64,000 bases of DNA from an uncultured Acetobacter sp. (GTDB taxonomy: Bacteria > Pseudomonadota > Alphaproteobacteria > RF32 > CAG-239). Below the pieces are notes generated by a model that saw only the letters and a list, made by a program, of their open reading frames with translations, was not told where the DNA came from and ran no database searches. This document shows positions 7,818-62,319 of the stretch, piece by piece. Numbering within the stretch: the first letter of the stretch is position 1; every line of letters starts with the position of its first letter. The DNA is taken from positions 7,822-71,821 of the forward strand of contig CAYQDC010000001.1 of assembly GCA_964416205.1 (NCBI GenBank), read 5' to 3'. The position numbers and the translations under genes were made by a program.

Positions 7818-7890
7818 AGATAATATCCTTAAAATACTAAAGACGATTTTGCTTAGCATGACGTCATAAAAAATAAAAGCCATTTCAGAA

Positions 7891-40395: not shown

Positions 40396-40788
40396 TTATA
40401 AATCAGTGTTTACCGCGTCCGTATCCTTTTTCAAATCAGCTATCAACTCGTCCACCGTGTCAAAATGACCAAAAACGCGCCCTGCTTTTATGTCGGCTTC
40501 TACATTAGCCATTGCCTGCGCAATAAACTCTTCTTCTGTATTTAATACACATTTCCCGTTATGCCATATCTCACTGGAATCAATATCTGTGTCATCTGTC
40601 CAGGTTATACCATAACCACCACAATCAATCCTGCCTTTGGCAAACAGCCCCGGAATATCCTTTAACGGTTTAAATGCTTCGTATTTATCAAACAGCGGTT
40701 TCATATCATACAGTTTTTGCACGCCACTTACAAATTCGGCTTTTATGATAAAATCCGGCAAAAAGTTTATTTTCTTTATTTTAAACAT
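40396..40788 (-). CDS. DUF2442-like protein with C-terminal extension
   Basis: N-terminal pattern KI..V.....L...F.nG......L.PL.........F..V.V.--I.W.-...D...-..W resembling DUF2442; AGGAGG RBS before ATG 40788. Confidence 0.55.
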   Translation of the reverse strand: MFKIKKINFLPDFIIKAEFVSGVQKLYDMKPLFDKYEAFKPLKDIPGLFAKGRIDCGGYGITWTDDTDIDSSEIWHNGKCVLNTEEEFIAQAMANVEADIKAGRVFGHFDTVDELIADLKKDTDAVNTDL

Positions 40789-40799
40789 CGTCGGCCTCC

Positions 40800-41054
40800 T
40801 TATGTAAGCGGTGGCAATACCTTGAATTGTTGCGATTGCCACATTTCCAGCAATTCTTTTTTATGAATCTCCATCCACTCGATAACCATTGCAGCAGCCC
40901 TTGCTGGCAAATCCCCCTCAAGCATTTTCAGGCTTTGAATATCAAACAGGGCGCTGTATTCTCCGTAAATAACATGCACGTGTGGCGGATTATGCTCCGC
41001 CCCCAACAGAAACATTTTTATCACTATTCCATAAAATCGCGCAATCACCGGCAT
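40800..41054 (-). CDS. DUF4160-like protein
   Basis: EHNPPHVHVIYGEYSALFDIQ...LPARAAAMVIEWMEIHKKELLEMW matches DUF4160 signature; AAGGAG RBS; 11 nt upstream of DUF2442 gene. Confidence 0.6.
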   Translation of the reverse strand: MPVIARFYGIVIKMFLLGAEHNPPHVHVIYGEYSALFDIQSLKMLEGDLPARAAAMVIEWMEIHKKELLEMWQSQQFKVLPPLT

Positions 41055-41342: not shown

Positions 41343-41789
41343 ATGGACACGATAGAACTGTATTTGCGCGGGCTTTCAGACAAACCCCAAAAGCCCTTAA
41401 CAACTATGGAGATGTATTTACAGGGAGTTAAAATCGAACCGCCAAAGCCTCGTACGGTTATTGAATGTTATTTAGCTGGCGTCGCCTGTGACGAGTGGCA
41501 GGAAGAAGACCACCCGCGCGATGATGACGGTAAATTCAGCAAAGTCAGAGGAAAAAACGCAAAATCGGTTGCCAAAAACGCCGGAAAGTGTAAAATAAAA
41601 AGACGACGCCGGATTGTCAGATTATCCGAAAAAGAGTTCGCCGAAGTTCAGAGCGCTTTTATGACTGATGTTACTAAGGAACAACGAAAGCAAAGTGTTT
41701 TGAAAAAATACATCGGCAATTATATTTACACCGGGATTTTGCGTGAAGACGGCACCAGAGATATTGTTAAAAGGATAAAAATAAAATGA
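41343..41789 (+). CDS. 'HPRD' module protein copy 1: N-terminal ELYLRG/KP.KP repeats, DHPRDDDGKF linker, basic C-terminal domain
   Basis: Paralogous to 59725..60240 and to the C-terminus of the portal 43951..45762. Confidence 0.5.
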   Translation: MDTIELYLRGLSDKPQKPLTTMEMYLQGVKIEPPKPRTVIECYLAGVACDEWQEEDHPRDDDGKFSKVRGKNAKSVAKNAGKCKIKRRRRIVRLSEKEFAEVQSAFMTDVTKEQRKQSVLKKYIGNYIYTGILREDGTRDIVKRIKIK

Positions 41790-42726: not shown

Positions 42727-43947
42727 ATGGCGGGATTATCAAAATTGATAGCACCGCCGTTTTATGCAATTCATTTAGATATTAAGAACGGCGGACATAC
42801 TGAATACTGGCTAAAAGGAGGCCGTGCGTCCACAAAGTCAAGTTTTATCAGTATTGAAATAATCTTAACGCTGATAAAATCACCGGGAACGCACGCCGTT
42901 TGCTACCGTAAAGTCGGCAACCGTCTGGAAACCTCGGTATATAACCAGATTAAATGGGCGGTGAGTGCCTTGGGTTTAATGCCTTATTTCAGGTTTTACA
43001 AAAACCCCCTCAAGGCCGAATATACCTTAACCGGGCAACACATCCTTTTCTTAGGCCTGGACGATCCGGAAAACTCGCGTTCGATTAAACTGCCGTTTGG
43101 TTACATCAAACAACTGTGGTTTGAAGAGCTGACCCAATATGACGGTATGACGGAAATCCGCAACGTTATGCAGTCCGTTATCCGTGGCGGTGATGATTGT
43201 CTGATTTATTATTCCTACAATCCGCCGATAGAGCCGAACAACTGGGTAAATATTGAAGCCAAAACCGACAACCCGGCGCGCCTTGTTCATCACTCTACTT
43301 ACGAGGGCGTCCCGGCCGAGTGGCTGGGCAAGTCCTTTTTTGTTGGTGTTGAACACTTAAAAAAGACCAACGAAAGAGCCTACCGCCACGAATACTTAGG
43401 TGAAGAAGTCGGCACCGGCTTATCGGTATTCACTAACATAGAATCCCGGATATTGCCGGAAGAAGAAACCCGACATTTTGACAATATATGTGAGGGTATC
43501 GACTGGGGCTATTCTGTTGACCCGTTTGTGTGGCTTAAAATGCACTATGACCGCAAACGCCAGACCGTTTACATTTACGAAGAGATTTATCAGGTTGGCC
43601 TGTCCAACCGGGAATCTATAGATCTTGTCAGAGCCGTCCACGATGACGACGCGATAATCATTGCCGATTCTGCCGAGCCAAAGTCTATATGGGAGTTTGC
43701 CGACGCTGGTCTGCCTGTTGAGCGAGCCGAAAAGGGCGCTGGTTCAGTCAGATTCGGCATAAAGAAGTTACAGGGTTTGGAAAAAATCGTCATCGACCCG
43801 CACAGATGCCCAAACGCCCTGCGGGAGTTTACCGGCTATGCTTACGAGGTGGACAAACAGGGCAACCCCAAAGCCAGTTATCCTGATAAGGACAATCACT
43901 GTATCGACTGCGCCCGCTATGCGCTGGAACAACAATTTGAGTATTAG
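42727..43947 (+). CDS. terminase large subunit (PBSX/Terminase_3-like)
   Basis: N-terminal ATPase (GGRASTKS Walker A-like), C-terminal nuclease with acidic residues; 406 aa. Confidence 0.8.
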   Translation: MAGLSKLIAPPFYAIHLDIKNGGHTEYWLKGGRASTKSSFISIEIILTLIKSPGTHAVCYRKVGNRLETSVYNQIKWAVSALGLMPYFRFYKNPLKAEYTLTGQHILFLGLDDPENSRSIKLPFGYIKQLWFEELTQYDGMTEIRNVMQSVIRGGDDCLIYYSYNPPIEPNNWVNIEAKTDNPARLVHHSTYEGVPAEWLGKSFFVGVEHLKKTNERAYRHEYLGEEVGTGLSVFTNIESRILPEEETRHFDNICEGIDWGYSVDPFVWLKMHYDRKRQTVYIYEEIYQVGLSNRESIDLVRAVHDDDAIIIADSAEPKSIWEFADAGLPVERAEKGAGSVRFGIKKLQGLEKIVIDPHRCPNALREFTGYAYEVDKQGNPKASYPDKDNHCIDCARYALEQQFEY

Positions 43948-43950
43948 ACA

Positions 43951-45762
43951 ATGAAGTTTTTTAAGAAAAAAGCCCCCAAAGCCCCGGTTGTTATGCCAAA
44001 ACCGAAAAAAGAAGAGCGCGCTACCCCTTTTCATCCGCAGATGACCAGACCGAGCCTTATGGCGGGCTTTGACGCCAGTATCAGACGCCGGGCTGATGAA
44101 TTTGTTGTCGAGCAGGTGAATATCGGTGGCAACATCCTGAATATCGCCACCGACGGCAAATTGTCCCAATCTGCCCGCAACGCTCTGGCACAGGCGTATG
44201 AACCGAATATTGCCGGGCAGGAGATTATTTATACCTATTTTGCCAGACAGAGCTTTATCGGCTTTCAGAACTGCGCTATCCTGTCGCAGAACTGGCTTAT
44301 CAACAAAGCCTGCATGCAACCGGCAGTTGACGCCGCCGCCATTGCTTATGACATTACCTTAAACGATGACGAAACCACCGACGAGGACAACCGTATTCTT
44401 GACGAGCTAAAGGCCAAAGCCACCTTTACGCAGAATTACGATATTATCGGTATATGCCGGGAATTTGCCGAGAAAAAGCGCCGTTTTGGTCAGGCTCTGT
44501 GTCTGCCGGTTGTTGATGATGTCGATTATTCCCTGCCGTTTAATATAGACGCCGTCGGCCACCACACCTATAAGGGAATGGTAAACATCGAACCGCAGTG
44601 GATAACGCCTGTTTTAGACGGCAGAGCGTCAAACGACCCGACCTGTCGCCGATTCTACAAACCGACATATTTTCGCCTGCCAGACGGACAGATTGTCCAC
44701 CACAGTTGGGTGCAGTTTGCCACGTATGGCAATATTCCCGATATTTTGAAGCCAACCTATTATTTTGGCGGTTATCCGTTGCCACAACTGTTATATGAAC
44801 AGGTTTACGCCGCCGAAAAGACCGCCAAAGAAGCCCCGATGCTGGCACAGTCCAAACGCCTGAACTACATGGAGGGCAACCTAAACGCCTATATTACCAA
44901 CGCTGATAAGATGGACAAAGAAATCCGCCTTATGTCTTGGCTTAGGAATAACTGGGGCTGGATGCTGGTAGGGCGCGATCAGAAACTTGGACAGCTTGAT
45001 ACCAGCTTAACCGATGTCGATTCGGTTACAATGCTAAGCTATCAGATTGTCGCCGCCATTGCCGGTATGCCGTCCGCCCGCTTACTTGAAACTTCGCCCA
45101 AAGGCTGGCAGTCTTCCGGCAGTTACGAGGACGAAAACTACAAAAAGCTGTTGTTATCCATACAGGAGCAGGATTTTGTCCCGATTCTTAATCGTCATTA
45201 CCGCCTGCTGACCAAATCCGAATACGGCAGAAGCTACGAATACAACTGCGTATTTACCCCGATTGACACGCCGTCGGCAAAAGAACTTGCGGAGATTAAC
45301 GAAATCAACAGCCGGACCAACGCCGCTTATATCAGTGCTGGGGTTGTATCTGCCGAAGAAGTCCGCAACGCCCTAAGACAGGACGAAAACAGCGGTTTCA
45401 ATGCCTTATCCGAAGAAATGGAAGCAGAAGAAGACCTTTCCGGCCTGTTTGGTGAGGAAGAAGAACAGCCCGAAGAGCCAAAAGACGAACCAGCCCTTGA
45501 CGCGTGGCAGGAAACAGACCACCCCCGGGATAAAGACGGCAGGTTCTCTTCCTCTGGTAGCAATTCCACAGGGAGCAAAAAAACAGTTGTCAAACTCTCA
45601 AAAAAAGAATATGGTAAAATCACGCACGAATTAAACACCAACCTCACAAAAGAGGAAATAAACAAAGGTTATACTGAACGATATATCGGCAACCGAAAAT
45701 ATTATATTTTTATTAACGGATTTAATGACTATAAAATTCTTGATTGGGAGAAAATAAAATAA
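43951..45762 (+). CDS. portal protein with C-terminal 'HPRD'-module extension
   Basis: 603 aa, follows terminase; C-terminal ~115 aa (from ~45409) = acidic linker + DHPRDKDGRF + basic domain homologous to copies 1 and 2. Confidence 0.7.
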   Translation: MKFFKKKAPKAPVVMPKPKKEERATPFHPQMTRPSLMAGFDASIRRRADEFVVEQVNIGGNILNIATDGKLSQSARNALAQAYEPNIAGQEIIYTYFARQSFIGFQNCAILSQNWLINKACMQPAVDAAAIAYDITLNDDETTDEDNRILDELKAKATFTQNYDIIGICREFAEKKRRFGQALCLPVVDDVDYSLPFNIDAVGHHTYKGMVNIEPQWITPVLDGRASNDPTCRRFYKPTYFRLPDGQIVHHSWVQFATYGNIPDILKPTYYFGGYPLPQLLYEQVYAAEKTAKEAPMLAQSKRLNYMEGNLNAYITNADKMDKEIRLMSWLRNNWGWMLVGRDQKLGQLDTSLTDVDSVTMLSYQIVAAIAGMPSARLLETSPKGWQSSGSYEDENYKKLLLSIQEQDFVPILNRHYRLLTKSEYGRSYEYNCVFTPIDTPSAKELAEINEINSRTNAAYISAGVVSAEEVRNALRQDENSGFNALSEEMEAEEDLSGLFGEEEEQPEEPKDEPALDAWQETDHPRDKDGRFSSSGSNSTGSKKTVVKLSKKEYGKITHELNTNLTKEEINKGYTERYIGNRKYYIFINGFNDYKILDWEKIK

Positions 45763-46042: not shown

Positions 46043-46276
46043 ATGGTGTCGATTAAAAGGGAAGACGTCCCCACGGAAACCGGGAAGAAACTTTATGATT
46101 TGCTGGTTGATTCCTGGAATAACCCTGAATTTATCCGGGGAACTCTGGCAATTCTTAGAGGCGACGCCAAAAAACAGGAGTTAATTGACGCTATAGAGGC
46201 AGGAATGACTGACTCTGACGATATTATTAGTAAATCTTGGGAAATCGCCTTTGGAGAAAAGTTGCCCGGTGATTAG
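46043..46276 (+). CDS. small acidic protein, family member 3 (77 aa)
   Basis: Homologous to member 1 (LYDLLVDSWNNPEF vs LYNILRDIWNDEEF). Confidence 0.5.
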   Translation: MVSIKREDVPTETGKKLYDLLVDSWNNPEFIRGTLAILRGDAKKQELIDAIEAGMTDSDDIISKSWEIAFGEKLPGD

Positions 46277-46461: not shown

Positions 46462-47277
46462 ATGTCTGAAAATGAATTAACATCAACCAGGCTGAACCCG
46501 AACGCCGGTATAATGGCATGGTATGTTCGGGAGTTGCGCAAACTCACTCACGCAATGACGGCGGAATGTCGGGCGCGGTTAAAGGAAATCTATGCCACCG
46601 GCTATCCTGACATTGCCTTTGATGAAAGTATTTCAAGTCAGGCCAGAATTGCCTTAAATGAATTACTGGAAAAATACGGCGATAAGTTCAGCAGGCGGGC
46701 GAAAACCCTTGCCCGGGATTTGGTAAACCGCACCAACCGGTATTCAAACAATCAGGTAAACCGGGCAATAAAAGATATGTTAAGCGATAAGGCAAAAGAT
46801 TTTACCCTGTCGCTGTCGGTTACCTCTGCCGAAAAAAAGGAAATCTTTAAAGCGCTGATTTTTGAAAATGTCAGTCTGATTAAGTCGATTCCCAACGACT
46901 ACTTTAAGCAGATAACCGGCGCCGTTGCCCGATCTATTGAAAACGGCGAGGGTATTCGCTGGCTGGCCAGACAGTTAAGGAAAACCGGTTATTCAACCGA
47001 ACGGCGGGCGCAGTTAATCGCGCAGGATCAGACCCGCAAAGCCTACAGCTGTATCAACCTGCGCAATTTTCAGGAGGCAGGTATTCGCAAATTCAGGTGG
47101 TTACATTCGGGAGGCTCTGCCAACCCGCGAGAATACCACAAAAACGTATTAAGTGGCAATGTTTATGACATTAACGACCCGCCGATAATCGATAAAAACA
47201 CCGGCGAGCGGGGTTTCCCCGGGCAGTTGCCTTATTGCCGGTGTGTGATGTGCGCGGTGTTATCTTTTGAGGAATAG
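46462..47277 (+). CDS. head morphogenesis protein, Mu F / SPP1 gp7 family
   Basis: Phage_Mu_F-like core (...IAQDQTRKAYSCINLRNFQEAGIRKFRWLHSGGS...). Confidence 0.75.
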   Translation: MSENELTSTRLNPNAGIMAWYVRELRKLTHAMTAECRARLKEIYATGYPDIAFDESISSQARIALNELLEKYGDKFSRRAKTLARDLVNRTNRYSNNQVNRAIKDMLSDKAKDFTLSLSVTSAEKKEIFKALIFENVSLIKSIPNDYFKQITGAVARSIENGEGIRWLARQLRKTGYSTERRAQLIAQDQTRKAYSCINLRNFQEAGIRKFRWLHSGGSANPREYHKNVLSGNVYDINDPPIIDKNTGERGFPGQLPYCRCVMCAVLSFEE

Positions 47278-47280
47278 AAA

Positions 47281-48432
47281 ATGCAGGCGGAAGATAAAAA
47301 AACAGTAGATTACAACGATTTCTGGTATATCAAAAACAACCCCCTCTCTAAAGTGGGGGTTTTTCCATACCTCGGACGCCAGATAAGCCCGGAGCTTGAA
47401 CCAGATCGGATTTATCAGGTTTACCGCCCCGAAGAGGAGCTGTCCAAACCTGAAACGCTGGAGACCTTTAAGCTTATCCCGATAACTGACGAACATACGA
47501 TGTTGGGGACAAAAGACGGTATGACCCCGGCCGAAGAAAAGGGCGTCCACGGTGTAACCGGCGACAATCCGGAATTTAAGGACGGATTTATAACCTGCGA
47601 CATCAAGATATATTCAGAAACATTAAAAAAAGAGATTGAGAACGGCAAAAAGGACTTATCAGTCGGTTATTTCTGCCGTTACGAACTTTTGCCCGGAGAA
47701 TACAAAGGGCAACCATACGACGCTGTCCAGAGAGACGTCAGAGTAAACCATATTGCTTTGGTTGACGAGGGGCGTATGGGTAAAGACGTCAGGGTAATGG
47801 ACAGCAAAGATTTAACGCAACTTACAAATGAGGAGTTAAAAATGGAAAAAAACAAAGCGTGCGATGAAGACAGGCGCGATATTATGCGTGCAGCCGACGC
47901 TATTGCTATGAAACCCGCCTCTGAATTTAAAGGAGGCGAAGAGGAAAAATTCCGCACCCTTACGGCTAAGCTGGGAGAACTGGCTAAACCCTCTGTAACC
48001 GGAGCAGCCGACGAAAAACCTGAACCGGAAGAAGAGAAAAAGGAAAAGCCGGTGGAGGATAACGACGACGATGCGGAAAAAACCGAAGACGAAGCCCCGG
48101 AAAAAGAAGAGGCAGAGGACGACGACGATGAGAAAGAAGAGGAAAAGGAAGAGAAAAAATCCTTTTCTATGGACGAGGCTGTCAGATATTTTGGCAGACG
48201 CGACGCTCTCGTTGCCAAAGTCCGCCCGCTTGTCGGTGATAACGTCAATTATGGCAATATGACGATTGCGGAGGTTATCAGATATGCGTGCGATAAGCTC
48301 GACATCAAAAATTCAGAAGACGCTCTTGATGGTTATATCAAAGCGGTAGGCCGTACTGCGCGAAAAGCCTCTGCCTGGGATAGCTATGAACAGAGCGACA
48401 CCATTAAACAGTATTTGAAAGGGAGTAAATAA
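47281..48432 (+). CDS. head scaffold/protease-like protein with poly-acidic region
   Basis: 383 aa; E/D/K-rich stretch typical of scaffolding proteins; position between MuF and capsid. Confidence 0.4.
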   Translation: MQAEDKKTVDYNDFWYIKNNPLSKVGVFPYLGRQISPELEPDRIYQVYRPEEELSKPETLETFKLIPITDEHTMLGTKDGMTPAEEKGVHGVTGDNPEFKDGFITCDIKIYSETLKKEIENGKKDLSVGYFCRYELLPGEYKGQPYDAVQRDVRVNHIALVDEGRMGKDVRVMDSKDLTQLTNEELKMEKNKACDEDRRDIMRAADAIAMKPASEFKGGEEEKFRTLTAKLGELAKPSVTGAADEKPEPEEEKKEKPVEDNDDDAEKTEDEAPEKEEAEDDDDEKEEEKEEKKSFSMDEAVRYFGRRDALVAKVRPLVGDNVNYGNMTIAEVIRYACDKLDIKNSEDALDGYIKAVGRTARKASAWDSYEQSDTIKQYLKGSK

Positions 48433-58198: not shown

Positions 58199-59030
58199 AC
58201 GGGTTTGTTACATTGAGGTAGAAACCGTCAACAACGGCTCTAAGGTGATGAAAAACCTTAACGGCCTTGCTATCCGTGGCCGAGTCTGTCGCCGTATGGG
58301 TTCAGTTGGTTCAGACGCCCGCGTTGCCGTTGCCAACCTCTCTACAGAGGACTTGGAATACCTGACCACCTATGTTTCGCCATACATAAACCCCGATATT
58401 CGCAAGAAAATCAACATTTACGCCGGTTATGAAGAAACCGGCTACGGACGGATATTTGCCGGCGACATATACAAAGCCCTGCCAGACGGAATGCCCGACA
58501 CCTGGTTGAATATGGAAGCCAGAAGCCTGTATTTCGAACAGCGCACGCCCTTAAGTTATGGCACTGGCGAAGTAACGACACAGACTCTGGCGCAGTCTAT
58601 CGCCACTGAAATGGGTATGACCCTGGTTTGGGACGCCACCGAAGTTAAAACCATCGATGACTTTAACTTTTCCGGCTCAACCGGTGATTTAATCAAAGAA
58701 TACAATCAACTTTCAGATGTCGTCTTATTTGAAGACAACGGCCAGCTGAAAGCAGTTGACCGGAATCCGTCATCAAGCGGGCGGACTATGAAGCTTATCA
58801 CCAAAGACACCGGAATGATAGGCTTGCCCGAACCCGATCAGTTCGGCGTTAAAGTCCGTTGCTTATTAGACCCCTCAATAGCCTGCGGTGACTGGGTGCG
58901 GGTTGAGAGTGTGAAAATCCCGGCATTAAACGGCGAATATCAGATATACACCATAGATTATGACTTTTCCAGCCGTGAGCAGGCTTTTTATTGCGACATA
59001 TACGCAAGAAAGACCGGCGTCGGTATATGA
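58188..59030 (+). CDS. baseplate hub-like protein (280 aa)
   Basis: position before spike. Confidence 0.4.
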   Translation: MKNKRVCYIEVETVNNGSKVMKNLNGLAIRGRVCRRMGSVGSDARVAVANLSTEDLEYLTTYVSPYINPDIRKKINIYAGYEETGYGRIFAGDIYKALPDGMPDTWLNMEARSLYFEQRTPLSYGTGEVTTQTLAQSIATEMGMTLVWDATEVKTIDDFNFSGSTGDLIKEYNQLSDVVLFEDNGQLKAVDRNPSSSGRTMKLITKDTGMIGLPEPDQFGVKVRCLLDPSIACGDWVRVESVKIPALNGEYQIYTIDYDFSSREQAFYCDIYARKTGVGI

Positions 59031-59038
59031 GGTTGACA

Positions 59039-59728
59039 ATGGCAGAAGTTAATTTACCGGCAGTTAATCCGTCAGACGTGCGAACGCAGGCGGGTATTTT
59101 GGAGTTCACGCAAAAGAAGTTCAAAAGCACGATTGAAAAGGTTATTCCGGCGCAGGTTATAAGTTATGATCGCGCCACCAACCGCGCCGAAGTGCAGATT
59201 TTGCCCCTGGACATAACCTCAACAGGTGAAAAGTTGCAACGTCGTCCCCTGCTTAACATTCCGATCCTGACCTTAACCGGTGGCGGTTTTGTGTTCAGTT
59301 TACCGGTAAAAGCGGGCGATGTTGGCTGGATTGTCGCTTCCGATAAGGATATTTCGGTATTTAAACAGACTTTAGCCGAATACACGCCCAACACTTACCG
59401 CCGGCATAAATACGAAGACAGCTTTTTCATACCCGATAACTTAAACGGCTTTACCATTGCCGAAGATGACAACGAAGCCGTGCTGTTATCTTCTGTTGAC
59501 GGCGTAACCAAAATCAGCCTTAAAGACGGCGTCGCCACCATAACCGCCGCGTCGGTTATCGTCAACGGCGAAACCACCATTAACGGCAACACCACTATTA
59601 ACGGCGATTTGAACATATCCGGCACTGCCACGGCCACAACAGAAGTCGTCGGTGGCGGTATAAGCTTAACCGGACACGTCCACGGTGGCGTAACCGGTGG
59701 CAGTGGCACAACAGGAACACCACAATGA
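59039..59728 (+). CDS. baseplate spike (P2 gpV/gp5-like) protein
   Basis: OB-fold-like N-region then beta-helical repeats (TTINGNTTINGDLNISG) and apex LTGHVHGG HxH motif. Confidence 0.55.
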   Translation: MAEVNLPAVNPSDVRTQAGILEFTQKKFKSTIEKVIPAQVISYDRATNRAEVQILPLDITSTGEKLQRRPLLNIPILTLTGGGFVFSLPVKAGDVGWIVASDKDISVFKQTLAEYTPNTYRRHKYEDSFFIPDNLNGFTIAEDDNEAVLLSSVDGVTKISLKDGVATITAASVIVNGETTINGNTTINGDLNISGTATATTEVVGGGISLTGHVHGGVTGGSGTTGTPQ

Positions 59729-60240
59729 ACACAATAGAATTATACTTGCGCGGGCTTTCAGATAAACCTGAAAAGCCCCTCACAACTATGGAACTGTATT
59801 TGCGCGGACTTTCAGACAAACCAAAGAAACCCCTCACGACTATGGAGATGTATTTACAGGGCATTAAGGTTGACCCACCCAAGCCCCGCACCGTTATCGA
59901 GTGCTATTTAGCAGGCGTCGCCTGTGATGAGTGGCAGGAACAAGACCACCCCCGCGACGACGACGGCAAATTTACTTCCTCTGGCCGTAGCTCCACAGGG
60001 CGCAAAAAACCGGTTGCAAAAAGCATCATAAAGTCTAAAATAAATGCAAGACGGCAAAAAGCCGTTTCCCTGTCTCCCCGGGAATATGGTCTTTTACATC
60101 ATGGTCTTAACGAGTATATCGCGGGAAAAGATATTCCCAAAGGTAAAATTATGCAATGGTGGACAGGAGAATATTGTTACGAGGTTTTGATAAATGGATA
60201 TAATGATTATGTCCCATTGATGAAAAGGAAAATACGTTAA
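59725..60240 (+). CDS. 'HPRD' module protein copy 2 (4 N-terminal ELYLRGLSDKP.KPLTTM-type repeats, DHPRDDDGKF, basic C-domain)
   Basis: ATGA overlap with spike stop; >80% nt identity to copy 1 over the N-terminal part. Confidence 0.5.
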   Translation: MNTIELYLRGLSDKPEKPLTTMELYLRGLSDKPKKPLTTMEMYLQGIKVDPPKPRTVIECYLAGVACDEWQEQDHPRDDDGKFTSSGRSSTGRKKPVAKSIIKSKINARRQKAVSLSPREYGLLHHGLNEYIAGKDIPKGKIMQWWTGEYCYEVLINGYNDYVPLMKRKIR

Positions 60241-60533: not shown

Positions 60534-60878
60534 ATGAAAACCATAGCAATTAACGATTCCAACGATATTTACCTCAATACATCGGGCAATTTAATGGTTA
60601 AATCCGATTTAGAGGCAATGGCGGATATTCTGACCAACAAGGCGCAGGGCAATCGGGGCGGTTTGCGCTATGACACAGAAAAGGGCATTGATTTCTTTAA
60701 TACCATATTCGCCAGCCCCTCATACCCTGATTTATTTCAGGCGCAGTTGACAGCAGAGCTTGCTGACACCGACGAGGTGTCCTCTGTTGCGGATTACGAG
60801 GCAGAAACAAACGACGGCGTTTATTCTTACACGGTAAACATTACCACATCTTACGGAGAGGTTACACTTAATGGCTAG
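60534..60878 (+). CDS. baseplate wedge protein (gpW/gp25-like), candidate
   Basis: 114 aa directly before baseplate J. Confidence 0.4.
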   Translation: MKTIAINDSNDIYLNTSGNLMVKSDLEAMADILTNKAQGNRGGLRYDTEKGIDFFNTIFASPSYPDLFQAQLTAELADTDEVSSVADYEAETNDGVYSYTVNITTSYGEVTLNG

Positions 60879-62319
60879 CAATTACAGTTACAACAATTCG
60901 GGGGTTGTTATCCCGGACACGGCAGACGTTCAGGAAGAAGTGCAAAGCGAGTTCACCGAAGCCCTTGGCACGGATTTATCACTGGAGGAGGAAACCCCAC
61001 AGGGGCGGTTGATTGACACAGAAACGCAGGCGCGGGTGGCAACCCTTACTTTTAACGCCGATATGGCCAACGTTTTAATCAACTTCACAACATCATCCGG
61101 CACGGCTTTGGACGCATGGGGGGAGAATTTTAACATCTCCCGGGTTGGTGCTTATGCGTCAACCGTACCGGTATTGGTAACCGGTATTGCCAACACGGTG
61201 ATTCCAGCCGACGCCCAGGCCAGCGCCAACGGCGTTATCTGGCTAAACGAAAGCGAAATCATCATTGGCAGTAACGGCACGGCAACCGGGACTTTCTATT
61301 GTTCAGAAACCGGCGCTATAGAGCTTGGCATTGGTGAGCTGAATACCGTCATCGGCAGTTCCACCCTTGGCGTGTCTGGTTGGGAAACCATTACCAACAC
61401 GGCCGTGGCGACCCCTGGCGCCGACAGGGAAAGCGACACCAGCTATAAAAAACGTATTCTGGCCGGGCTTTTCTCCGGTTCGGCGTTGTTTGGCAATTAT
61501 AAAAGCGCTTGTATTGTCCTGGATAACGTTTCTGACGTATTCACTTACGATAATCCGTACGGCGAAGCCCGCCAGCTTGATAACTGGACGATTCCCGCCC
61601 ATAGCGTATTCGTATGTGTCGAGGGTGGCGACGCCGAAGAAGTTGCGTATGCCTTATATGAAGTCAAATCCGCCGGTTGTGGCTGGAGTGGCAATACCTC
61701 GGTTGTCGTAACCGATAAGACATACAATACCAGCAACCCGGTTGAATTTTACATTCCCGCCAGTGTCAACATTGCGGTTGAACTGGACTTAACCGCAGAA
61801 TCAAGCTCTGACTCTGATTTGGAAAACACGGTAAAAGACGTGATTGTGTCCTATTTTGCCGGAGAATATGCCGATAACAACTATGACGGTTTGGGGATTC
61901 GGGCTTTAATCAGTCCGTCGGTTATATCCGCCGTGGTAACATCACAGGTATCCGGTATCAGTATCACCGGTTGCCGGGTTGGTCTGGTAACGCCTGAACC
62001 TCACGCCATTGCGTCCATTATTAAGGCGTCCATAACCTCGGGTGTAACCTGGGCAAGTGTCGACACCTCAACTTTTGGCAGTGCTGTATCAGCTAATGGT
62101 ACATATAACTTTACATACACCGAGTCGGGCTGGCAGTTATCCGGGGCAGGTGTAGACCTTGCAACTTACGGCGTAACGATTGAGGGAACACCGGTTGAAG
62201 GCGACCTTGTTTCCATTCTTTACGCCGACGGCAATCTGGCGCAGGATCCGATACGGCTGTTCTGCACCGAAACGGCAGCAATTTCAACAGATGACATAAC
62301 GGTAAACATCAATGGCTGA
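60871..62319 (+). CDS. baseplate J-like protein
   Basis: 482 aa, typical size/position; ATGG overlap. Confidence 0.7.
   Translation: MASNYSYNNSGVVIPDTADVQEEVQSEFTEALGTDLSLEEETPQGRLIDTETQARVATLTFNADMANVLINFTTSSGTALDAWGENFNISRVGAYASTVPVLVTGIANTVIPADAQASANGVIWLNESEIIIGSNGTATGTFYCSETGAIELGIGELNTVIGSSTLGVSGWETITNTAVATPGADRESDTSYKKRILAGLFSGSALFGNYKSACIVLDNVSDVFTYDNPYGEARQLDNWTIPAHSVFVCVEGGDAEEVAYALYEVKSAGCGWSGNTSVVVTDKTYNTSNPVEFYIPASVNIAVELDLTAESSSDSDLENTVKDVIVSYFAGEYADNNYDGLGIRALISPSVISAVVTSQVSGISITGCRVGLVTPEPHAIASIIKASITSGVTWASVDTSTFGSAVSANGTYNFTYTESGWQLSGAGVDLATYGVTIEGTPVEGDLVSILYADGNLAQDPIRLFCTETAAISTDDITVNING

Follow-up and report, generated by a model that had tools for sequence, protein, structure and literature searches.

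A variable C-terminal tail on a prophage portal protein links a conserved junction motif to a small basic domain and a co-varying acidic partner

The portal gene and the layout of its tail

The subject of this report is the C-terminal tail of a phage portal protein encoded in the genome of an uncultured Acetobacter sp. (assembly GCA_964416205.1, contig CAYQDC010000001.1), within a 64,000-nucleotide (nt) stretch of forward strand (contig positions 7,822 to 71,821) that is referred to here as the window and whose first letter is position 1 of all coordinates given below. The portal gene is a forward-strand open reading frame (ORF) at 43951..45762 whose product, 603 amino acids (aa) in length, belongs to the family PF06381 (Phage_portal_3, also DUF1073), the match covering aa 106-454 with a score of 193.2 bits against a Pfam cutoff of 33.8; the portal profile phrog_146 matches the same ORF at 1e-72. 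The protein consists of five parts, namely the portal core, a polyacidic tether of 26 aa (SEEMEAEEDLSGLFGEEEEQPEEPKD), the motif WQETDHPRDKDGRF, a linker rich in Ser, Gly, and Lys, and a basic domain that was delimited as 60 aa (aa 544-603) and has a core of about 58 aa (Table 1). A short EPALDA segment stands between the acidic stretch and the motif. The length of the ORF and the order of acidic linker, motif, and basic domain had been described in an initial annotation of this DNA and were confirmed in the sequence, while the small acidic ORF that was said to begin 1 nt past the portal stop in fact has its ATG at 45762, overlapping the last base of the stop codon (TAATG).

Table 1. Coordinates of the portal gene parts and of related and neighboring genes in the window
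Feature	Coordinates	Strand	Remarks
Portal core, aa 1-486	43951..45408	+	PF06381 Phage_portal_3
Polyacidic tether SEEMEAEEDLSGLFGEEEEQPEEPKD, aa 487-512	45409..45486	+	Isoelectric point (pI) 4.05; net charge about -12.5
Junction motif WQETDHPRDKDGRF (W-Q-E-T-D-H-P-R-D-K-D-G-R-F)	45505..45546	+	
Ser/Gly/Lys-rich linker SSSGSNSTGSK	45547..45579	+	Predicted local distance difference test (pLDDT) <50 at residues 28-31 of the AlphaFold2 (AF2) model
Basic alpha2-beta3 cargo domain, aa 544-603	45580..45759 (with stop codon to 45762)	+	pI 9.5
Acidic partner type A, 77 aa	45762..45995	+	Overlaps portal stop by 1 nt; Shine-Dalgarno-like GGGAG upstream; pI 4.8
Acidic partner type B, 77 aa	46043..46276	+	Extra/orphan copy; same family as the 45762 product
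Free paralogue 1, 148 aa	41343..41789	+	Three 18-aa leader repeats, junction motif, type C cargo domain
Acidic partner type C, 84 aa	41786..42040	+	ATGA overlap with free paralogue 1; pI 4.05
Free paralogue 2, 171 aa	59725..60240	+	Four 18-aa leader repeats, junction motif, type D cargo domain
Acidic partner type D, 77 aa	60240..60473	+	1-nt overlap with free paralogue 2; pI 4.08
Large terminase	42727..43947	+	By position; syntenic with the Terminase_3 gene directly upstream of the portal in loci L039-L041
MuF-like minor head protein	46462..47277	+	No cargo here; PF04233, E 6e-14
DUF2213, Pa193 gp24-like putative scaffold	47281..48432	+	PF09979, E 2e-43; function from PMC11456595

Related portals share a core and differ in their tails

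The tails of the 120 best portal homologues from a large protein collection were classified, and 51 of these proteins lack an extension altogether, ending shortly after an acidic '...DPF.D..GGSE..Q.PF' stretch. An HPR-type junction is present in 52, followed by the same small domain in 35 and by other cargo in 17, while 11 have an alternative junction, 'W[IF]T..G.HIP[IL]' (4 with the small domain and 7 with other cargo), and 6 have other tail types with mixed cargo. In total, the small basic domain is found on 41 of the 120 portals and is the commonest tail of the lineage; the other cargoes at this position correspond to the Pfam families PBECR1, PBECR3, LPD13, Gln_amidase, and ADPrib_exo_Tox, and a more distant portal, in locus L023, carries a Zeta_toxin domain. 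The acidic stretch, which reads 'EEMEGE...DPF.D..GGSE..Q.PF', is homologous between the short portals, which end with it, and the long ones, where the junction comes after it. Over aa 1-503 the nearest homologue, P0032, shares 86% identity with the window portal, beyond which it loses all similarity, continuing with an unrelated tail of 366 aa past the portal core (~348 aa past the breakpoint at aa 503), which implies a recombination breakpoint inside the acidic tether. Matches of the portal to 50,697 sequenced phage genomes all end near aa 497, and a tblastn search of the tail against the same records gave no match. These alignments show a portal core that ends, as judged by sequence similarity, at approximately aa 486-503, with everything beyond it varying between otherwise close portals. 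A variable C-terminal domain on otherwise orthologous carriers is also the feature that characterizes the polyvalent-type portal and MuF effectors described previously (PMC5512222).

It follows from the same comparison that the extension is not a universal element of the portal crown, the outcome that would have counted against the initial annotation, in which the module was read as a discrete and portable unit fused in frame to the portal; the fusion recurs in at least 41 cluster representatives, and other close portals have other domains or none. E217-type portals do have a short C-terminal helical barrel (PMC10329688), and the tail could in principle be an integral, conserved part of the crown or barrel, or else the product of a sequencing frameshift that joined two genes. 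We find both ideas scarcely credible, as they are refuted by the comparative data: the tailless portals, the unrelated tail of P0032, and the common end point of the matches to sequenced phages argue against an integral part, and an assembly error is excluded by the same in-frame fusion being found again in no fewer than 41 independent cluster representatives, as well as on at least 22 contigs of IMG/VR. This portal lineage, which is common in gut metagenomes, thus appears to use its C-terminal tail as a slot for exchangeable cargo.

The alternative junction, in full '(E/D)EP..W[IF]T(T/S).(N)G.HIP[IL]..GE(S/N)K.EA', takes the exact place of the HPRD motif between tether and cargo and was observed in the portal homologues P0065, P0066, P0076, P0125, P0126, P0140, P0142, and P0149, as well as in P0022, P0151, and P0259.

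The HPRD motif marks a junction between carriers and diverse cargo

A six-frame scan of the window with HPRD.DG[KR]F returned three sites, at 45520, 41511, and 59947, each in a long forward-strand ORF, compared with a chance expectation of ~1e-5 matches per 64 kb by our own arithmetic with uniform residue frequencies. The first lies in the portal tail and the other two in free paralogues 1 and 2, both of which combine the motif with a basic C-terminal domain homologous to that of the portal, and a fourth, likewise free paralogue (P0003) is encoded outside the window on the same 75,740-bp contig, in agreement with the initial annotation, which had reported that the module is also encoded as free proteins. 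At the DNA level, the three window copies are mosaic. The motif core is 75-87% identical in every pair, the region upstream of it is 80% identical between the two free paralogues, and the Ser/Gly/Lys linker is 77% identical between the portal and free paralogue 2, while the cargo domains are only 38-49% identical pairwise.

Beyond the window, a scan with HPRD[DK][DGN]G[KR]F of one genome per species, and of IMG/VR, located the motif in 38 genome loci and 45 IMG/VR loci, the former from Clostridia, Negativicutes, Alpha- and Betaproteobacteria, Elusimicrobia, Bacteroidales, Verrucomicrobia, Planctomycetes, and Cyanobacteria. It occurs in three positions: within portal-sized ORFs at aa 440-750 (IMG/VR contributes at least 22 portal fusions), at aa ~192 of a DUF2213 scaffold fusion, and at aa 7-10 of free proteins of 150-270 aa. 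The cargo behind it is diverse, comprising PBECR1, PBECR3, MuF_C, LPD3, LPD13, Zeta_toxin, Gln_amidase, and an anthrax-LF-like (ATLF-like) peptidase, and the cargo found in the window is shared by only one of the 38 genome loci, from an uncultured Dialister. A Gly/Ser-rich linker follows the motif in nearly all relatives. These distributions show W-x-E-x-x-H-P-R-D-x-x-G-[KR]-F to be, as far as sequence comparison can tell, a junction conserved across many phyla between head-internal carriers (portal, DUF2213 scaffold, or short leaders) and diverse cargo. The 'HPRD' module named in the initial annotation is therefore real as a module, but HPRD is not itself the functional part, being a junction motif that precedes many unrelated cargo domains. 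A conserved carrier with a polymorphic C-terminal module at a conserved junction, here with mosaic flanks and diverse cargo, is a defining feature of polymorphic toxins.

The HPRD motif is not mentioned in the searchable literature, where the motif string matched only papers on the 'Human Protein Reference Database' or on DHPR deficiency; a term search of PMC5512222 and PMC5576092 was also negative, and nothing specific was found in the recent literature on portal-fused cargo. The motif could serve as an address tag, a processing site, or an ejection signal, and could be used to flag such cargo across phyla. A more far-reaching idea, which can be entertained only tentatively, is that W-x-E-x-x-HPRD-x-x-G-K-F is a general phage capsid-cargo tag used across many phyla, with the small basic domain and its four-helix partner (see below) being a new toxin-immunity family delivered in this way. 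Any domain placed behind such a tag would be taken into the head and set free in the next host, and the tag would work equally on a portal tail, on a scaffold, or right after a start codon. If this were true, injected phage proteins could be listed from sequence alone, and the tag would offer a handle for engineering phage protein delivery.

Two further observations concern the surroundings of the motif in other bacteria. Several Clostridia proteins with different cargo (L004, L011, and L027) have a second short motif, '(E/T)[YF]RQNT[SPG]Y..I', after the HPRD motif and the Gly/Ser linker. In a Bacteroidales portal of 871 aa with zeta-toxin cargo (L023:6-2618), a DUF6496 (PF20106) segment lies directly upstream of the HPRD motif, and a 'G.L....G..V.....A.AIA.SEA' stretch stands before the motif in P0181 as it does in L023.

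The basic cargo domain forms a large family

A profile built from the last 60 residues of the portal protein matched 516 cluster representatives at E<=1e-3 (237 at E<=1e-10), and in these, which range from 68 to 663 aa in length, the domain is always located at the extreme C terminus. MuF minor head proteins (PF04233, PF06152) and VG15 account for many of the carriers, and in a structural match from BFVD the domain terminates a 'PolyVal ADP-ribosyltransferase' of 1042 aa. The HPR motif is present in only 29 of the 142 listed representatives. At least 30 of these 142 have a different motif before the domain, '(L/M).(I/L)(N/D/G)(I/L/M)Q(F/L/H/Y)F(A/S)(K/R)', which lies ~11-15 residues ahead of the conserved L(P/S)K.EY start of the domain and resembles the L27/Prp cleavage consensus MLxx(D/N)LQ(F/L)F'A(S/H)KK (PMC9405229). 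This match suggests proteolytic release of the domain in those phages, the probable enzyme being the host Prp protease. No L27/Prp-like motif occurs in any frame of the window. The representatives P0153-P0289 (e.g., P0173, P0186, and P0201) include Firmicutes MuF-type carriers and free proteins of 74 aa with 'MKIDIQLFAKSS...' or 'MDLNLQFFAKSSKDY...' upstream of the domain.

The AF2 model of the cargo domain, computed from an alignment of 24 sequences, has a pLDDT of ~84 and comprises two helices (H40-53 and H56-61) followed by three strands (E63-68, E71-79, and E82-90). The predicted fold of the ~58-residue domain weakly resembles RelE/ParE-type toxins, a likeness that we treat as a lead only. 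Membership in these toxin families is not indicated by sequence, as there was no match to Pfam or PDB profiles and there is no invariant catalytic set of His, Lys, Arg, or Tyr. More generally, aa 487-603 matched nothing in Pfam, NCBIfam, or PADLOC and could not be placed in a described effector or LPD family, and searches of Pfam, PHROGs, NCBIfam, and PADLOC with the tail, the free paralogues, and the four acidic partners recovered no meaningful family, the only matches being weak ones to long portal profiles of PHROG (15528 and 30637). Searches of PDB sequences with the module and domain profiles gave nothing but a chance match to endonuclease III (E 1.1). The identification of the domain as a cut-down PBECR1 was rejected, the hhalign comparison with the PBECR1 cargo alignment giving a probability of 0.1%.

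Acidic genes downstream of the cargo domain are its co-varying partners

Behind every cargo gene in the window, overlapping it or at a short distance, lies a gene whose product is an acidic protein of 77-84 aa, the pI values being 9.1-10.1 for the cargo domains versus 4.0-4.8 for the acidic proteins. Such a partner, encoded by a translationally coupled gene, lies directly downstream of the cargo domain in all nine instances examined, the three in the window and six elsewhere, in which the carrier is a portal (P0033 in L039), a fragment of a Dialister portal (L001), a MuF2 fusion (P0173 in L044), or a free protein (P0005 in L042, P0004 in L045, and P0012 in L091). No partner gene was present after the two PBECR1-cargo portals that were examined, in L002 and L037. 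The partner family comprises 84 clusters, none with a Pfam domain or an informative name, and is predicted by AF2 to form a four-helix bundle (pLDDT 77), for which structural comparison gave generic matches only.

Four types of co-varying cargo and partner can be distinguished, all of them found in at least two independent contexts. Type A consists in the window of the portal cargo and the 45762 product and elsewhere of P0012, whose cargo domain is 70% identical to that of the portal, and P0346, which is the orthologue of the 45762 product and is encoded directly after P0012. Type B is represented in the window by the partner at 46043 only and elsewhere by P0033 and P0295; the partner encoded after portal P0033 in L039 shares 66% identity with the 46043 product, whose cargo in this genome is P0003. 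Type C pairs free paralogue 1 with the 41786 product and, in L042, P0005 with its neighbor, and type D pairs free paralogue 2 with the 60240 product and, in L045, P0004 with P0296. The existence of four co-varying types implies a specific protein-protein pair. On this comparative evidence, the small acidic genes are the cognate, co-varying partners of the basic domain, a point that the initial annotation had missed, and a downstream gene that co-varies with the toxin module is a further hallmark of polymorphic toxins, although in the present case the linkage is genetic only. Two unannotated families, the ~58-aa basic domain and the acidic partner, therefore behave genetically like a toxin-immunity pair with four specificities in one prophage.

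No cargo of type B adjoins the type B partner at 46043, its match being the free paralogue P0003 beyond the window. Polymorphic toxin loci typically contain displaced or orphan immunity-like genes of this sort, and the cargo of the portal may once have been of type B, like that of its relative P0033 (68% identical).

Pairs of this kind invite comparison with toxin-antitoxin systems, and it could be that a selfish pair landed among virion genes and acts in the lysogen, in prophage maintenance or abortive infection, with the fusion having no function in delivery. The weak RelE/ParE resemblance, the tight overlap of the paired genes, and the free pair at L045, which has host genes on one side and a SocA_Panacea antitoxin-domain gene as a neighbor, would all fit. 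We nevertheless consider this quite improbable, since head and neck proteins (portal, MuF, and VG15) are almost always the fusion partners or the surroundings of the domain, one of its sites adjoins a gene for an E217_gp27-like head-to-tail adaptor (PF13262), its junction is common to many other virion-associated cargo domains, and placement in a late operon would be unusual for a maintenance module.

The L045 region itself (L045:4001-6385) contains the free type D pair beside the host genes for LptF/G, guanylate kinase, and YicC, followed by the SocA_Panacea gene and a free PBECR1 gene, and looks like a small toxin-antitoxin/effector island or a prophage edge.

Predicted position in the virion and a possible role in infection

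The best solved relatives of the portal are the gp19 portals of Pseudomonas phages Pa193 (9b41) and E217 (8fvh), with E 1.6e-86 and an alignment that covers aa 75-494 only. In the E217 portal, residues 97-528 of 765 were modelled, and the C-terminal helical barrel projects into the head, the remainder being invisible (PMC10329688). Since the C terminus of the E217 and Pa193 portals points into the head, the tail should by homology lie inside the capsid above the channel, which agrees with the position at the DNA channel proposed in the initial annotation. Held by the tether, as many as 12 cargo copies would come to lie in the capsid at the entrance of the channel, and no separate packaging signal would be needed.

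Taken together, these data lead us to propose that the 3' end of the portal gene probably carries an interchangeable cargo cassette consisting of a virion-loaded effector and an immunity-like partner. The cargo would enter the next host with the DNA, and the acidic partner would neutralize it in the producing or lysogenic cell in the manner of an immunity protein or antitoxin. This interpretation rests on the RNase, ADP-ribosyltransferase, deamidase, and zeta-toxin domains of sister portals and on previous work (PMC5512222, PMC5576092, PMC3482391), in which effectors fused to portal and MuF proteins, predicted to be packaged and injected (PMC5512222), and MuF polymorphic toxins (PMC5576092, PMC3482391) were described. 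Release of the cargo would require proteolysis somewhere in the tether, junction, or linker.

Several points weigh against this proposal. Packaging of the cargo, retention of all 12 copies, cleavage of the linker, co-ejection, and toxicity are predictions, and a domain joined covalently to the portal could exit the capsid only after cleavage; neither a Prp-like motif nor a recognizable head protease was found in the window. The domain has no invariant, potentially catalytic residue, only L, E, Y, and I being nearly invariant. As the commonest tail in the lineage (41/120), it is also compatible with a structural or housekeeping role, and the four-helix fold of the partner is generic. The DUF2213 protein was considered as a head protease that might cut the junction, following its PHROGs label, and was rejected, the protein being a putative scaffold in Pa193 (PMC11456595).

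Some of these same points would suit a role in virion structure or genome handling, in which the twelve tethered basic domains would remain attached to the portal, binding RNA or the end of the packaged DNA at the channel entrance, and nothing would be injected. The domains would then help in genome retention or in the timing of ejection, as do SPP1 gp7 or the P22/E217 barrel, and the acidic partner would act before assembly as a chaperone or nucleic-acid mimic, keeping the domain inactive until packaging of the DNA. The domain is indeed basic and small, with no invariant catalytic residue, and is the most frequent tail among the portals; it is also present on MuF proteins, whose SPP1 homologue, gp7, is reported to bind the portal (PMC5576092) and is called a DNA-binding protein targeted to the procapsid in the title of a reference cited there. 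The window has no cleavage motif or protease, and the E217 barrel contacts DNA and unfolds after ejection (PMC10329688). We think a purely structural role unlikely, however, since about half of the close portals have no tail at all and others have bona fide toxin or enzyme domains at the same position. Three further free copies in the same prophage, of different types and at three places in virion gene blocks, are likewise difficult to reconcile with it; four co-varying types would be expected of toxin-immunity diversification rather than of a housekeeping DNA clamp, and the L27/Prp-type motif upstream of the domain in relatives implies release.

Proteins injected with phage DNA decide the first minutes of infection, in anti-defense, host takeover, and competitor killing, and few are known or easily predicted. 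Cargo delivered from the portal, if in 12 copies per particle, would reach a dose far above the 1-2 copies reported for the MuF protein SPP1 gp7.

Comparison with known systems

Portal-fused effector domains are already in the literature (PMC5512222), a point absent from the initial annotation, and the present finding belongs to classes that have been described, namely portal-fused effectors and MuF-borne toxins with downstream immunity genes. Within the searches made here, both protein families, that of the cargo and that of its co-varying partner, appear to be undescribed, as do the two junctions, HPRD and the alternative WIT..G.HIP.

The polyvalent-protein effectors of Iyer, Burroughs, Anand, de Souza, and Aravind (2017, PMC5512222) resemble the present system in that the carrier is a head protein of a portal-terminase phage and the variable C-terminal domain is predicted to be packaged and injected. 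Their PBECR1/3 and LPD13 domains occur among the 120 closest portals, LPD3 and MuF_C are found in more distant HPRD loci, and, by the BFVD match, the small domain ends a 'PolyVal ADP-ribosyltransferase'. The cargo in the window, however, matches none of the domains described in that work and has a dedicated downstream partner, which the two PBECR1-cargo portals lack, and the HPRD junction is not mentioned there according to the term search. The MuF polymorphic toxins (Jamet et al. 2017, PMC5576092; Zhang et al. 2012, PMC3482391) share with it a conserved N-terminal virion domain and a variable C-terminal module, a small gene directly downstream that is consistent with an immunity gene, extra or orphan cassettes, and a prophage context, and the same small domain is frequent on MuF proteins. 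They differ in having MuF as the carrier (1-2 copies in SPP1), a role taken in the window by the portal, with its 12 copies per virion, or by a short repeat leader, the MuF gene of the window having no cargo, and the toxicity of the cargo in the window is only putative.

The RelE/ParE (BECR-fold) toxins are similar in their helix-helix-three-strand topology, which is predicted for the cargo domain, and in the combination of a basic protein with a small acidic partner. The domain in the window is nevertheless shorter (~58 residues versus 85-110), has no sequence-profile match and no conserved catalytic set, and its partner is a predicted four-helix bundle in which no DNA-binding antitoxin domain was detected. 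Among portals, E217/Pa193 gp19 (8fvh, 9b41) is the closest solved structure and has the same PF06381 core, the same head gene order of portal, MuF, DUF2213, and capsid, and a long unresolved C-terminal extension (765 aa, with residues 97-528 modelled), but it is only ~39-41% identical and its extension has no similarity to the tail in the window. In these Pbunavirus portals, the part of the C-terminal extension that cryogenic electron microscopy does not resolve amounts to ~240 aa. Finally, phage proteins processed by the L27/Prp pathway, such as the capsid and scaffold proteins of S. aureus 80alpha (PMC9405229, PMC5744158), have the consensus (D/N)LQ(F/L)F'A that is found before the cargo domain in Firmicutes relatives. 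The window lacks this motif, the HPRD junction taking the equivalent position, where cleavage is only putative.

Genomic neighborhood of the portal gene and its free paralogues

The order of the head genes in the window matches that of L039-L041 (Terminase_3, portal, Phage_Mu_F, PF09979, and PF09950), with the ORF at 43951..45762 in the place of the portal. Free paralogue 1 is located immediately upstream of the genes for the small and large terminases, and free paralogue 2 lies within a block of tail and baseplate genes, where the ORF upstream of it (58991..59728) is read as a putative central spike and that at 60871..62319 as a putative baseplate J-like protein.

An 18-aa tandem repeat, 'T.IE[LMC]YL[RQA]G....P.KP.T', opens both free paralogues, with three copies in the first (41343-41500) versus four in the second (59725-59920), and has no further occurrence in the window. 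It could be a docking leader for a virion component.

Two small, overlapping ORFs on the reverse strand (40396-41054) adjoin free paralogue 1 upstream, one of which (40800..41054) contains 'GAEHNPPHVHV'. In locus L042, which is syntenic with the region of free paralogue 1, a DUF4160 gene was called at the edge, and the reverse-strand pair in the window may be of the DUF4160/DUF2442 type.

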